From: Octopus vulgaris
Taxonomy: Eukaryota
DNA: 64,000 bases
NCBI GenBank assembly: GCA_951406725.2
Contig: OX597832.1
Span: forward strand, 23,126,001 to 23,190,000
Reading direction: 5' to 3'
A program made the translations under genes and the position numbers. Shown here piece by piece: positions 25,759 to 64,000 of the stretch (position 1 is its first letter; every line of letters begins with the position of its first letter). The notes under the pieces were generated by a model, which saw nothing but the letters and a program-made list of their open reading frames with translations, was not told the DNA's origin and did not search any database.

Positions 25759-26353
25759 GCTCTTGAAGTAGTCGCTGCGCCATGTGATCAAATACAGAAC
25801 TGGCGCGAAACACTTTCCTCTTAACCACAGACACTTAGATGATATATGCGTTACATATTTTAGCTCCTGCGATGTACTGGAAACATCTTCTAAAGGTTTA
25901 GTAGATCGATATAAGTGAATCAGAACTTTAACATTCTTAAGATTTCTGAAAACCAACTTTAATATTTTATCTCCCTGAGTCTGATAATATTTTAGATTGA
26001 AAGATATGAAGATATAGAGTTCCTAATTGATCAGAAGAAGGAAGCGGTGTCGCATCTCTACGAAACGCTTAGAATACTTGTACATTATTTACAAGGTTAT
26101 GACACGTACGTAACAAACTGAATATATATTTTTAATGTCCCCTAAGTAACGGAAGAGGATAAAGCAGAACGAAATAACAATGGATTCAAGCTTAAAAGTT
26201 TATCTTTGGAATGTTAGCAATAGTTAAAATATCTCTTCTTCATTTACTGGTTTCAATCGTTGAAATATATGCAGAGATGTCAAAAGTAAACGCGAAGGCA
26301 CATAGACTCGCACAAATGCGTGCACACACACACACCCAGAAATACGCATATAC

Positions 26354-26579
26354 ATCGCAAACGGTACACACGAGGTCACATTTTGAGAGTTAATCCAAAC
26401 AAGAAAGCACAAAAAAACACAACAGCGCGAAGACGTGGAACAAATATAGTATTATTGGACGCTCAGGAAAGAAAGAACCAAGGAGGGTTTAACGCTTCGA
26501 GCGGAGCTCATCGTCGGAAACATAGGAAAAGGAAAGATTCAGAGAAGGGAAGACAGAGGAAAAATATCGCCAACGGTAC
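26354..26579 (-). mobile_element. Family D HHR unit, circularly permuted
   Basis: Contains the end-to-start junction GGATTAACTC|TCAAAATGTGACC; ACGGTAC recurs at 26361 and 26573 (period 212). HHR at 26487-26521 has GAAA mutated to GAAG. Confidence 0.7.
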
Positions 26580-26589
26580 GTGTGTACTT

Positions 26590-26654
<65 letters not shown>

Positions 26655-26947
26655 GTGTCTGTGTGTGTGTATATATATGCATATATATATATTTTTTTCC
26701 TTTTTAAATACTTATATATATATTTTAATACTTTTTGATAGTTATATATATTTAATATAACAAAAAAACAACAACAAAAAAATTATCAATATAAATTAAT
26801 TTTAATTTTAAATTTATATAATTTAAATTTTTTAATTTTATATTTTATATATTTTGTATATTATATTAATCATTTTTATTTTTATGTTTTGGTTTATGTT
26901 TCTCATTGTTTGATTTGCCTAATAGTCGTTTTATCTCTAATTTAATT

Positions 26948-36566: not shown

Positions 36567-37092
<526 letters not shown>

Positions 37093-37524
37093 ATACTCTC
37101 CATTCTGCGGGCGTCAAGCTAATACATCTGTTGATGTATATGTCGTTGCAATTATGTTGAAATGTCACCTGTCCAAATATGGCTAAATGTCTTTATTTTT
37201 CTTTCAATATTTATTTTTGCAACAATAGCCAGTTCCTTTGGTCAAACTATCGTATCTTCAGCTGCGTCATATGCCAAGATATCGAAAAGTGTCAAAGTGT
37301 ACTACAATGGCTTTGCTATGGAATGGTGAATCTATTTCTTCGTTTTCTGAAAAAGCAATTATTTGTACTCACGACACTTTTGTATAATAGCAATGATATA
37401 CATTTATGGCGGTAAGAGGTATGTATAATTATATATGCGCACATACATATTTAGCTATATATGCATACATATAAGTATATATATATATGTATATATATAT
37501 TCATAAAAGTGTTTTCGTGCGCGT

Positions 37525-44664: not shown

Positions 44665-46091
44665 TATACCAGTAATGCAACGAACATTCTCAAAATCCTC
44701 ATTGTAAACAATTCCTAAATGGGAGAAGATGATTATTTTGCTTGCCAAGATGTGAGATTTAACGACAGAAGGAGCATCTGGCTGTAAACTATCTACCACA
44801 ACCAATTTCTCTTCTTCCAGACAAGCATGGAAGCGTAGATACTGAACCGATAAAGATGACCATTTTAATTTACATATGTGAAATTTGAATAGTGGGATTT
44901 TAGCGTAATTTCGTAAAGATTTCTTCTTTTTTTTCCACTTATAAAACGAAAGTTGTAAACAAGTCATATACAATATGGTTGACATGTAAAGGATGTACAT
45001 ACGAGTGCTAAAGCAAGTAGGTAAAAAAACTATTATCCATTATCTTCTTCGGTTTAAAATAAAACAAATCAAAAATAAGATACTTAGTAACTCAAACCTG
45101 TAAAAAACGATAAATCTTTCTTAAATTACGCCATTGCACCTATAAAAGCGAAGGGCACGTTGTAGTATATTGTGTTAGATACAGAGATATTAGATACACC
45201 TGGAATGCTTTTGATAAGAATTGTTCTCGATAAGAGCTGGCAATAAACAACAACAACAAGAAGAAAAAACAATGAAAACTGCAATATCCTCCTGTTGAGA
45301 ATCACTTCATGAAATGTAACAAATCGATTAACAATATAGGTGCAAATCACACCTAGGAAATACGATTGAATTTTGACAGCTAATATCTTAAACTAAGGCA
45401 GCTGCAAATTTCATTCCTTTCTCTTGTAGTAAATCATTTTGAGATTTTCTCAGAAATAATGGCTCTTAATGACTCCAACAGCTATGTACATTTTATCTGT
45501 TATTTATGTAAATTAACATCTACGTTGGCTTAAAATGTAATATCTACAAACTTAATGCTGGTTGTGTGGACGTATGTATTTACCTAGATTTAACCGGCAT
45601 GCGATGATGACGTAACATCGTGTACCATGTTTTAGCAAAATCATTTGTTTGCCTATGTAAAGGTGAGATAACACAGGGACGCTTTGGTCCCTCCACTGCT
45701 TGGCTGGGTGTTATATTAATGATGTGTGCGATAGTTGGACAGAAGGCTTCGCCAGCACTCGATTGATTCAAGTTTCTAGCTAAGTGAACTAGAGGTACGG
45801 TTTATGAAGTACCTTGCTCAAGGTCACAATGCTATGCCCGGTCAACGAATCGAGCCCACGACCTAGTGATCCCGAGTTCAAAATCTTCGTTGACTAGGAC
45901 CCCGCCACACACACACACAAACACACCAGCCTAGATGTCTTTCATCAAATTTACTTGGAATTGCATTGCTTCTAGTTTCACAAACGAAGAAAATATCCTG
46001 CTCTTCCAACATTTCATTCTGAGTGGTTACATAGGCCCAGTCGGAGCGCCCAATGGTGAAAGACATCGTCGTATGCGACGGAGTGCCAGTT

Positions 46092-46176
<85 letters not shown>

Positions 46177-46255
46177 AATATTAGGGAATAAATCCAAATT
46201 TACAGGGAAAAAATCAGATTTAGGATTAAATCCAATTTTATAGTAAAATATTAAA

Positions 46256-46563
46256 TAATATTAATTAGAGACAAAACCACTATTTTGCAAAACAAACAAG
46301 GAAAGACTTAATCAATACATAAAATTTTAATAAAAAGTAAAAAAACCGCCACTACAATTGTTTCATGTCTAATGACAATCTTCAGGTGGACTTCCGATTT
46401 TCAAATCAAATCAGTTTCAATTTATAGGAAATCCACCTGAAGATTGTCATTAGACATGAAACAATTGTAGTGGCGGTTTTTTTACTTTTTATTAAAATTT
46501 TATGTATTGATTAAGTCTTTCCTTGTTTGTTTTGCAAAATAGTGGTTTTGTCTCTAATTAATA

Positions 46564-46566
<3 letters not shown>
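46256..46566. repeat. 135 bp inverted repeat with an intact HHR on each strand
   Basis: Arms 46256-46390 and 46432-46566, identical by eye. HHR (+) at 46433-46473: CCAC CUGAAGA U UGUC AUUA GACA U GAA ACAAUUGU A GUGG; mirror (-) at 46349-46389. Confidence 0.9.
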
Positions 46567-46623
<57 letters not shown>

Positions 46624-46624
46624 T

Positions 46625-47089
46625 TTATAAAAAAAGAAGTTTGAAAACGCCACTATATAAGATAAATTTTAATTTTCTCAGAGGTTTTACATAGTTCGGT
46701 TCTTCCTGAAAAAACGAATCTTATCAAAAATATTTTAAACGGTTAAGTGTAATAAAAAAAAGTTCATAATTGTTTCTTACTAGTCTGAACAGAGTCCACG
46801 TGGTGCTATTTCGTGGTGGGGACTATTACGGCCAACTGTCACTTTCACGATTACAGCCAACGATTCTAGTCAACTACAAGACGTCCATTATGCTCCCACC
46901 AACAAAACGCCACCACGTTGACTCTGTTGAGACTAGTAAGAAACAATTATGAACTTTTTTATTACACTTCACTTTTAAAAATATTTTTGATAAGGTTCGT
47001 TTTTTCCAAGAAGAACCGAAACATGTAAAATCTGTGAGAAAATTAAAATTTATCTTATATAGTGGCGTTTTCAAACTTCTTTTTTATAA
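46625..47089. repeat. ~180-200 bp diverged inverted repeat with U3:A8 HHR variant
   Basis: Arms ~46625-46805 and ~46909-47089. HHR (+) at 46983-47031: AUUU UUGAUAA GGUUC...GAACC GAA ACAUGU A AAAU; the left arm carries the same UUGAUAA core. Confidence 0.8.
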
Positions 47090-47506
47090 CTATATACCCA
47101 CTCGTATGAAAACCACACTTTTTATAAACATATATATATATCTATATGTGTTTTTTTTATGTATGTATATAAATACATACGCATATTTGTTTCTTCTAGC
47201 ACTGGCGTTTTCTTGTAAGTTATAGTTGTACTATTCTCAACGGGAAGTAGAAATGAATTAGTAACACGAGAAGGGAAAACAAAGAATATATTTGTATTTG
47301 AATAGCAGCGACTTTACACCTACGCAACACATGAATATATTCAGTATAAATATATTCAGCATAAATACTACAATGTCTCTATAATATGATGACAACAATA
47401 TTTATTGTGATTTAATGTAATATTTTGTATAAATGTTAATATAATGTTTGTCATTATAAACCTCTTCTAAGAATAAACATGGAACAATTACAGCTGGTGT
47501 CACTAT

Positions 47507-48863: not shown

Positions 48864-49501
48864 ATACACGCATACATGCAGCATACATACAGACATATAT
48901 ATATATATACATATGTGCATGTGTCTGTGTTTTGTCTCCAACGCTTGATAGCCGCCGTTGACTTGTTTATGTGTTCGTAAATGAACGGTTCGGCAAAAGA
49001 AAATAAGGGCTTAGTTACAATAAATTAGTAGTGGCATTCTGTCGAGGCGATGCGGAGGATAGCTGTAATCCAATGATTAAAACAAGTAAACTATATATAA
49101 GGCAACCATTACGAAACAGAAACAGATAGGTTTACTGCACAACGGCGATTAGAAAATAGAAATAATGCAGAAATTGATTGAAGAAAACAACTCGAATGTA
49201 AACTAAAAAGGAGATTAGAAAATGATACGCTAAGAAAGGCATTAACAAGAAAAACTTGTTGAGGGATTAAGCACAATGTAAGAGATCAAAGAAACTTGTG
49301 AAAAATACCTGGGAAGCTTTGAGAAGTACCAGAGACAACTAAGGAATTAAAATGAATGCAGGTGAATATAAAAACGCATGTTCAGAATATGTTGACGGTG
49401 TGAAGAGGAAATCAACGTCATTGTCTCTGGCCTGTCAGAAATAGAGGGACGGATCGCCTTGCGTTAGTTCTCTCCCGTGATAGACATTAATGCGACTGTC
49501 A

Positions 49502-50486
49502 AGGCGGCGAGCTGGCAGAAACGTTAGCACGCCGGGCGAAATGAGTAGCGGTTTTACGTCTGCCGTTACGTTCTGAGTTCAAATTCCGCCGAGGTCGACT
49601 TTGCCTTTCATCCTTTCAGGGTCGATAAATTAAGTACCAGTTGCGCACTGAGGTCGATGTAATCGACTTAATCCGTTTGCCTGTCCTCGTTTGTCCCCTC
49701 TGTGTTTAGCCCCTTGTGGGTAATAAAGAAATAGGTATTACGTCTGCCGCTACGTTCTGAGTTCAAATTCCGCCGAGGTCGACTTTGCCTTTCATCCTTT
49801 CGGGGTCGATAAATTAAGTACCAGTTGCGCACTGGTGTCGATGTAATCGACTTAATCCATTTGTTTGTCCTCTTTGTCCTCTCTGTGTTTAGCCCCTTCT
49901 GGGTAGTAAAGAAATAGGTATTTCAAATTGAATCCCCGAGATTTTTCATGTCGGTCAAATAGTTTTTAGTCCAGGGTCTTAATCTAAAATTGTCCAAATA
50001 GGTCTGTGATGCAACAACATGCAGAATAGTGTTTTATATATTGTCAATCAATATCTTGAATAATTCATGACTTGAAATTGTTACGGATAAAGTAACAAAT
50101 ATTCTTTTCTACTCTAGGCACAAGGACCGAAATTTTGGAAGAGGGGTCTAGTCGATTAGTGCAACTGGCACTTAATTTATCGACCCGAAAGGATGAAAGG
50201 CAAAGTCGACTTCTGTGGAATTTGAACTCAGAACGCAAAGACAGACGAAATACCTATTTCTTTACTACCCACAAGGATTAAACACAGAGAGGACAAACAA
50301 GGACAGACAAACGGTATAAGTCGATTATATCGACCCCAGTGCGTAACTGGTACTTAATTTATCGACCCTGAAAGGATGAAAGGCAAAGTCGACCTCGGCG
50401 GAATTTGAACTCAGAACGTAACGGCGGACGAAATACCACAAAGCATTTCGCCCGGCGTACTAATGTCTCTGCCAGCTCGCCGCCTT
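49502..50486. mobile_element. Two SINE family B dimers in inverted orientation
   Basis: 49502-49923 (+) and 50103-50486 (-). Confidence 0.85.
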
Positions 50487-51306
50487 GGGTAGGTAACAAA
50501 TATTGTTTTCCTGACTGCAACACTTTATTCAGCACATCAAACATAAATACACACACGCACACACACATATTCTCTCTTACATACAAAGCATACATACATA
50601 AACACACAAACATTCATTGTATTGTTTTACACTCGCTTCATTCAGTGTTCAGACATGAGCAGAATATTGGTTAGTTGAAATATATTTCTTAGATATTTCA
50701 ACTGCTAAAATGCAAACACAACAGCAGTTACTGTAGGGAATATATCTCTCTTATGGTAAGAAGGGGTGAAAACACCCGGTTCGTGAAAACACCTCCTAAC
50801 CATAATAGAGATATATTTTACCATAAGGAAGATATATTCAGCAAGGAAACTGCAGCGCATTAGCCTTTTTATCAGTTGAAATATATGACAAATATGTTCC
50901 AACTTATCTAAATTCTCTTCATGCCTAAACACCGCTTAGCACTAACACTTCGTAATTTTCCTTGAACGGGTGATCTTCTAGCGCAAATGAATCAACGTTT
51001 TGACCAAATCATATATAAAGCTATGGCTTTATAATTTCGTTCAGAGTTGCTTCTCTTAGGTATATCTCATCGACAACTGAGAAGAAGCTTGAGACATCGA
51101 TGTCTGGGATTCCTCTTAGATAGCGACACTGAACGAACCGGGTGTTTTCACACATTTTTTACTATAAAGCGTATATATATTCTCCATGGCAATTGTAGTG
51201 TGTTTGCTTTTTAGCAGTTAAAATATGCCACGAACATTTTAACAGACGTAAATTCTGCTCGTATATGTGTGAATGTGTATGTGTGTGTATGTATAGATAT
51301 ATATAT

Positions 51307-63357: not shown

Positions 63358-63621
63358 TATCCAGTAAAATCTTTTTTGCTGTTTTATTTTGTCTCTCTGT
63401 CTTATCTCATGGTGCGATATGAACATTTAAGGTGGTTTTTGGAGTCGAGGTATTGACTGCTATTTCGGCATAGTGGTATCTCTCAGATACCTTTATTTAT
63501 AGTTATATATATATATTTATATATATATGGAGAAGCTTCTTTCAGTATCCGTCAATCAAATACAGTCACAAAGATGTCACACATTGGGACTCAATCAGGA
63601 ACTATGCGATTAGGAACCATG

Positions 63622-63679
<58 letters not shown>

Positions 63680-63683
<4 letters not shown>

Positions 63684-63892
63684 AATGTGACCGCCTGTGT
63701 ACCGTTGGCGATTTTTTTTCCTCTGTCTTCCCTTCTCTAGATCTTTCCTTTTCCTATGTTTCCGACGAAGAGCTCCGCTCGAAACGTTAAACCCTCCTTC
63801 TTTCCTTCTTTCCTGAGCGTCCAATAATACTATATTTGTTCCACGTCCTCGCGTTGTTGTGTTTTTTTGTACTTTTTTGTTTGGATTAACTT
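63680..63892 (+). mobile_element. ~212 bp HHR-bearing unit (family D), full monomer in (TA)n
   Basis: HHR at 63758-63792: GUUU CCGACGA A GAGC UCC GCUC GAA ACGU U AAAC (helix I GUUU/AAAC, helix II GAGC/GCUC, palindromic helix III ACGU, U4C core variant). (TA)n on both sides. Confidence 0.75.
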
Positions 63893-64000
63893 TATATTTA
63901 TATATATATATATATATATATACAGACACACATATATATTCTTTTATCCTTTTACTTGTTTCAGTCATTTAAGTGTGGCCATAGTCGAGTGATCGGACTC

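Follow-up and report, generated by a model that had tools for sequence, protein, structure and literature searches.

Head-to-head leader copies of a Penelope-like element, probably made from spliced RNA, as the source of a ribozyme-bearing inverted repeat in Octopus vulgaris

Inverted ends of Penelope-like elements (PLEs) have been published, and so have pairs of hammerhead ribozymes (HHRs) on opposite strands, which lie 100-700 bp apart in Schistosoma (PMC4209133). The hairpin described here is therefore known in kind. How such structures arise is less settled in the sections of the literature that we cite here and below. A leader intron near the start site has been described (PMC2377424), and the cited section of PMC3846280 takes the head-to-head palindromes together with intron retention to point to an antisense template. 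The question is left open there, with the statement that more experimental work is needed to choose between an antisense and an unspliced sense template. Both the keeping of introns by PLEs and their head-to-head inversion are called open in the relevant passages of PMC3846280 and PMC8557442. For another PLE, internal starts of reverse transcription have been shown in vitro, according to the cited part of PMC11167929. Our literature search returned no report of spliced genomic PLE copies, and older papers and supplements outside its scope may mention intron-less copies. The precise splice junction in the hairpin loop was found in no paper and is, as far as the searched literature goes, the new element of the present case.

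The hairpin is located in a stretch of Octopus vulgaris DNA of 64 kb, which is referred to as the window. It was produced when a young Hydra-clade PLE inserted into a (TA)n tract, and it is not unique (Table 1). A first-pass annotation made from the sequence had described a perfect inverted repeat of 135 bp, and this is borne out by the complementarity of the two perfect arms. All 135 bp are paired across a spacer of 41 nt, and a single mismatch (46391/46431) is followed by 4 further paired bases. The extent given in that annotation (46256..46566) was too short, however, as the whole insertion covers 46171-46566. The 85-nt tail, which extends one of the arms and makes the insertion asymmetric, had been overlooked. 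The window copy is probably without a promoter of its own, since its sequence begins 5 nt downstream of the predicted start site, so that the upstream region is missing, as is the intron.

Table 1. Parts of the hairpin insertion and its flanks, in window positions.
Feature	Position	Strand	Basis or remark
Left (TA)n target microsatellite	46092..46170		sequence; TA/TAT repeats end 89 of 90 family tails
85-nt PLE tail, single arm	46171..46255	-	present on a single side in 18 of 18 hairpins
Tailed arm, exon 2 of the PLE 5' leader	46256..46398	-	perfect arm is 46256-46390
Type-I hammerhead motif, tailed arm	46349..46389	-	predicted cut between 46353 and 46352
Splice junction of exons 1 and 2	46398..46399	-	parents have a 1006-1130-nt GTATGT...TTTTAG intron at the same point
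Exon 1 remnant	46399..46425	-	from +6 of the predicted transcript; private 5-nt duplication
Head-to-head junction	46426		one base that matches the template of neither arm; parent copies compared
Tailless arm: exon 2, beginning with its 4th base and reaching the upstream fixed 3' end	46427..46566	+	perfect arm is 46432-46566
Type-I hammerhead motif, tailless arm	46433..46473	+	predicted cut after 46469
Right (TA)n target microsatellite	46567..46619		sequence

The parent element is represented by two near-full copies (L112, L113), in which the leader is followed by an ORF, by about 1.7 kb of non-coding DNA and by the leader again. This single ORF contains reverse transcriptase and then C-terminal GIY-YIG motifs, and is broken by stops or frameshifts in both copies. 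The motifs RIKWK, SDKTRN, CTCRDKSKC, CYLC and CRH were read by eye. Compared with the Hydra-clade list in the cited section of PMC8557442, RWK, DKT, CxCX5C, CxxC and CxH are present and CCHH is absent. A Pfam scan of three parent ORF pieces gave no relevant match, and the Atlas neighbours of one parent ORF piece are HTH_animal and RVT_1 clusters. Other features of EN+ Hydra-clade elements are found as well, namely the (TA)n target, the inverted copy, the one-sided tail and an HHR in the pseudo-LTR (pLTR). Judged by these motifs and structural features, the parent is an EN+ PLE of the Hydra clade. The initial reading of the repeat as a young inverted PLE pLTR agrees with the finding of a parent with reverse transcriptase and GIY-YIG ORF, but it did not recognize the spliced 5' leader as the source of the arms. 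In full-length parents, the 85-nt tail runs on into the 5' UTR, with the ATG about 57 nt beyond the tail, and each arm of the hairpin has its own fixed 3' end point, the two points being separated by 85 nt and located a short way upstream of the ORF start.

Some observations on long copies may be added. The ORFs of L112 and L113 have an asparagine-rich linker between reverse transcriptase and nuclease, and a similar linker in rotifer Penelope ORFs is described in the cited part of PMC3846280. In L114 and L115 (G000:C4:78.73 Mb; C16:22.0 Mb), the block of promoter, exon 1 and intron is tandemly duplicated inside long copies, with a period of about 1.02 kb. In L052 (G000:C1:129.72 Mb), the arms of the inverted repeat reach 3.2 kb and the intron measures about 1.8 kb; this locus represents the long-arm version of the insertion type.

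When the genome was searched with the hairpin, 1786 first-look candidates were obtained, and nearly the whole query was covered in all 40 matches that were scored. At 18 fetched loci, the centres vary from copy to copy while the outer ends are fixed, and the 85-nt tail is present on one arm only. A 42-base pattern from the tail has 816 exact matches genome-wide (control: 0). Ninety tailed copies from among the first 100 listed of these matches (first 30, then 60) were sampled, leaving out two tandem matches on C1 and the last 8 listed. Nearly all of the sampled copies (89) terminate in TA/TAT repeats; both strands carry an HHR in 20, the spliced junction occurs in 29 and an unspliced acceptor in 15. 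An inverted arm is found within 690 nt in 56 of the 90 copies, and there is none within this distance in 34. Arms were classified by motif and anchored alignment; BLAST-based arm calls over-extended in AT-rich DNA, and from these the HHR counts alone were kept. Copies are single or head-to-head, with partial tandems in a few long or tail copies.

The splice junction became evident from a comparison of long copies and hairpins. The HHR exon is directly preceded by TTTTAG in long copies, but by a different leader of 27 nt in hairpins. The prediction that this leader, followed by GT, exists elsewhere in the genome was tested and gave 26 matches, 25 of which belong to the family. In 18 of the 26 cases, an acceptor and the HHR follow 1006-1130 nt downstream, always with GTATGT...TTTTAG, which corresponds to a GT-AG intron of about 1.03 kb. 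The other matches have variant letters or a longer spacing, or are truncated. The window copy has a clean exon-exon junction at this point. Exact counts for one subfamily are 83 spliced junctions versus 73 unspliced acceptors, and for a second subfamily 312 spliced junctions (the first 100 listed all have the spliced form) versus 293 unspliced acceptors; the unit of these counts is arms, not insertions, and the reversed-pattern controls gave 0. Altogether, there are roughly 390 exactly intron-less genomic matches. The intron is retained in long genomic copies and absent from short leader copies.

Intron loss by DNA deletion would be allowed by a direct repeat at donor and acceptor, but none was seen. 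In the parent L052, two donors lie in tandem at a distance of 4 nt, and the splice products of both are present as genomic copies, which DNA deletion would not give. Nearly all spliced arms (29 of 30, from 26 insertions) end at most 28 nt from the donor, at an initiator-like TCACTTC, while one goes further upstream; L097 and L166 are spliced, yet reach upstream of the common start. Exact intron-less copies, the use of two donors and the common stop together make it likely that spliced sense RNA has been reverse-transcribed. We are quite confident of a spliced sense template; the short copies would be cDNAs of this transcript which ran off its 5' end, both the start site and the splicing being read from genomic copies. 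A spliced sense template would go against the published idea that intron retention reflects an antisense template.

We consider it probable that two intron-less copies of the PLE 5' leader, generated by reverse transcription of spliced sense RNA, were inserted head to head and so formed the hairpin. The GIY-YIG nuclease of the element would cut (TA)n, and reverse transcription would start inside the RNA at two fixed points, one for each DNA end. Each cDNA would be only about 170-260 nt long and would run to the 5' end of the RNA, and the two cDNA ends would be united by end-joining, which would create the copy-specific centre. The HHR on both strands would be a by-product, and the copy, being probably promoterless, would be inert unless read through. 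As a tentative generalization, which we put forward as somewhat short of likely, PLEs may prime two cDNAs, one per cut DNA end, at two fixed internal sites of the sense RNA. Priming in the 5' leader would lead to short run-offs similar to retroviral strong-stop DNA, and priming in the 3' repeat to long intron-bearing copies. If this is true, run-off cDNAs would record in the genome the start of the spliced transcript and possibly the in-vivo hammerhead cut, and a single scheme would account for the tail, the head-to-head inversion and the apparent retention of introns.

With respect to the origin of the second arm, we lean towards two RNA-primed cDNAs as the main route. According to the alternative, a tail-primed cDNA of spliced RNA reaches the 5' end, folds and copies itself (snap-back), and then jumps to (TA)n at an internal TATA stretch. 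Self-priming has already been proposed, in the cited section of PMC3846280, and exon 1 is partly self-complementary. Within an insertion, the arms show 1.2 differences on average, versus 7.5 for arms of different insertions (43 insertions whose arms are both full, 903 pairs), and loop II is identical between arms in 38 of 40 cases, where 14% is expected by chance. This near-identity indicates that both arms are derived from one source, which is also expected from snap-back or from later gene conversion. A recurrent junction at +1 (28 matches, control 2) is found in several subfamilies. Of 11 family loci, 9 have the tail on the arm that reaches +1, as snap-back of a tail-primed cDNA would have it; it is absent in one, and in another (L199) the polarity is reversed, which is at odds with snap-back. 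A twelfth locus with this junction is unrelated to the family. It is speculation that the recurrent +1 junction gains a base pair if the reverse transcriptase adds a C opposite the cap.

There are also insertions that are difficult to explain by snap-back. In L111, a spliced tailed arm is joined to a 2.9-kb unspliced tailless arm, so that the arms differ by a whole intron. This chimera, the only one of its kind examined, favours two RNA-primed cDNAs. Among 46 two-armed insertions, the tailed arm is longer in 14, the arms are similar in 18, and the tailless arm is longer in 14, which include the tail-only partners L020, L082, and L091. A longer tailless arm speaks against self-copying, but could be a false appearance caused by central deletions in palindromes. 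In addition, the arms of the window copy diverge 5 nt from the junction. We consider snap-back the less likely main route, and both routes may operate. Long unspliced copies terminate at either of the two fixed points, which again speaks for two cDNAs, as do the in-vitro results on another PLE (PMC11167929), where two internal starts bound the tail and both strands are extended. A target-site duplication is unreadable within (TA)n.

A pattern scan for type-I HHRs on both strands of the whole window gave 2 matches, both in the hairpin. CUGAAGA occurs at 46437 (+) and 46385 (-), with a 4-bp stem I and a 4-bp stem II, together with GAAA, the palindromic ACAAUUGU and the triplet GUA. By pattern, the type-I core CUGANGA/GAAA/NUH with helices I-III and a palindromic loop 3 is present. 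The claim of an intact HHR on both strands holds for the motif and the core letters in each arm, but not for the usual G10.1-C11.1 position, which is called highly conserved in the cited part of PMC4209133. This position, which adjoins the core, is U.U in the window copy and U-A or A-U in other subfamilies, the G10.1-C11.1 pair being absent from all that were compared. An Rfam search of the window gave no family at gathering score, and the hammerhead model is absent from the 12 matches to E 10 in 45500-47500. Matches to miRNA models were below threshold and were rejected, as any long hairpin would give such matches. Across family copies, there is almost no variation in stems I and II or in the core, loop II is variable, and the dimer helix is kept through G.U pairs in a loop-3 variant; the underlying counts include overlapping loci. 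Little or no monomer activity is reported for motifs of such kind in the cited section of PMC4209133. A lone arm is predicted to favour another hairpin (-9.4 vs -3.9 kcal/mol). The sequestration of the ribozyme in the rod, which had been suggested initially, follows from the predicted fold of the hairpin RNA (-218 kcal/mol), if the locus is transcribed.

The 5' ends of 115 non-intron arms are bimodal, with one cluster at the start site and a second one 1-26 nt behind the cut site. For the longer arm of 46 insertions, 26 ends are at the start, 14 at +1 to +25, 5 in between, and 1 beyond. Only one arm end is within 1 nt behind the predicted HHR cut. The second cluster fits HHR-cut RNA as a template, and stalling of the reverse transcriptase where the alternative hairpin begins, or else at an AT palindrome, fits equally well.

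Three other readings of the hairpin have to be considered. With its fixed outer ends, hundreds of copies and some recurring centre spacings, the hairpin might itself be mobile, similar to a MITE or a retrozyme, and amplified from a master hairpin. This is improbable, as the centre differs from copy to copy, the arms follow their own subfamily rather than a single master, and tandem monomers are absent. Moreover, long unspliced copies use the same two outer ends, and 34 of the 90 sampled tailed copies are without an inverted arm within 690 nt. Even less probable is that the hairpin has been selected as an ambisense, viroid-like ribozyme RNA or that it functions as a substrate of Dicer or ADAR. 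Such a role would be in line with the HHR on both strands and with the high predicted stability of the rod, but just 20 of the 90 sampled copies have kept both HHRs, the promoter region is absent, and the mode of insertion explains the symmetry. By prediction, the rod blocks both ribozymes, and even a lone arm favours the other hairpin. A function of the hairpin as RNA is unsupported. That the resemblance to viroids is superficial had already been stated in the first-pass annotation, and is confirmed: one HHR is inverted, there is no tandem monomer and no sign of a circular unit, and the hairpin is a routine insertion product of its family.

An artefact of the assembly or of long-read fold-back is the least probable of these readings. 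The arms are unequal due to the tail, show a one-base difference and are flanked by different DNA. The proposed check of the junction in independent reads gave cross-arm joints at other positions in short-read contigs of other runs (mostly in rows of X4, some in X2 and X3), but among the contig pieces listed none spans the junction of the window copy. This, and the mirrored flanks of L086/L194, would be compatible with an artefact. For the hairpin class as a whole an artefact is unlikely, because all 40 scored matches are near-full hairpins with differing centres and because contigs join across the arms.

The L086/L194 locus (G000:C2:203.128 Mb) has two tailless arms within a larger palindrome that includes the flanking DNA, and L092 and L104 are each followed by flanking DNA similar to it. 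In the window, a second and older fold-back of another repeat family, with arms of about 185 nt that are about 88% alike, is found at 46623-47090. Its family has 1304 first-look candidates, many of which begin at the same point, and includes hairpin copies with differing centres and a degenerate hammerhead-like motif. The process described here may thus have acted in a different PLE family as well. A further short repeat, a putative PLE end fragment, adjoins (TA)n in several copies, at 26290-26760, 36990-37122, and 63591-63968. At 49500-50487, two dispersed repeats of 209 nt lie in inverted orientation at a distance of 570 nt and are 91% complementary. The window has 49 ORFs of at least 120 aa, most of which appear repeat-derived by eye.

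The hairpin itself is ordinary, and its worth is that of a record of mechanism. For the octopus family, hundreds of precisely spliced copies with their ends at the start site provide direct evidence from the genome that spliced sense RNA is a template, and the two-cDNA model can be tested by counting chimeric insertions. The family also scatters many perfect inverted repeats as a by-product, and these would yield double-stranded RNA if read through.

Ambisense viroid-like RNAs are circular replicons with a distinct ribozyme in each polarity, whereas the octopus hairpin is a chromosomal insertion in which one ribozyme sequence is inverted. Non-LTR retrozymes, as characterized in the cited section of 10.64898/2026.07.22.740005, are likewise small, non-coding, HHR-bearing and related to PLEs, but are defined by HHR tandem monomers, which the hairpin family does not have. 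With the minimal type-I HHRs of PLEs (Cervera and de la Pena 2014, PMC4209133, cited in part), the octopus motif shares the 4-bp helix I, the tiny palindromic helix III and the dimer-type design, but it differs in having U.U, U-A or A-U instead of G10.1-C11.1 and a helix II of 4 bp only. Poseidon PAc of Anolis (Frangieh et al. 2024) is similar in having two internal starts of reverse transcription that bound the tail, in the cutting and extension of both DNA strands, in a predicted dimer and in uncleaved HHR RNA as template. It differs in that the work was done in vitro and that reverse transcription starts inside the ORF; in the cited part of that paper (PMC11167929), an intron or a spliced leader is not discussed and RNA ends at the HHR cut were not seen.

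The closest relatives are the Hydra-clade EN+ PLEs (Craig et al. 2021), for which the cited section of PMC8557442 gives the same RWK-like, DKT, CxCX5C, CxxC and CxH motifs, the lack of CCHH, a canonical HHR, the (TA)n target, the inverted 5'-truncated copy and the one-sided tail. The tail is longer in the octopus family (85 nt versus 30-40 nt), and the octopus element, with about 5 kb, a leader intron of about 1 kb and a long non-coding 3' region, exceeds the size of these PLEs, which are generally below 3 kb. Intron retention is reported for them in that section, while spliced copies are found here. Penelope from Drosophila virilis and Adineta vaga, in the cited parts of PMC2377424 and PMC3846280, also has the start site in the pLTR with an initiator-like TCACT motif, a short exon 1 followed by an intron in the 5' UTR, and head-to-head inverted pLTRs with palindromic junctions. 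These passages stress intron retention and an antisense or unspliced template, whereas in octopus the intron-less copies are about as common as the intron-bearing acceptors.
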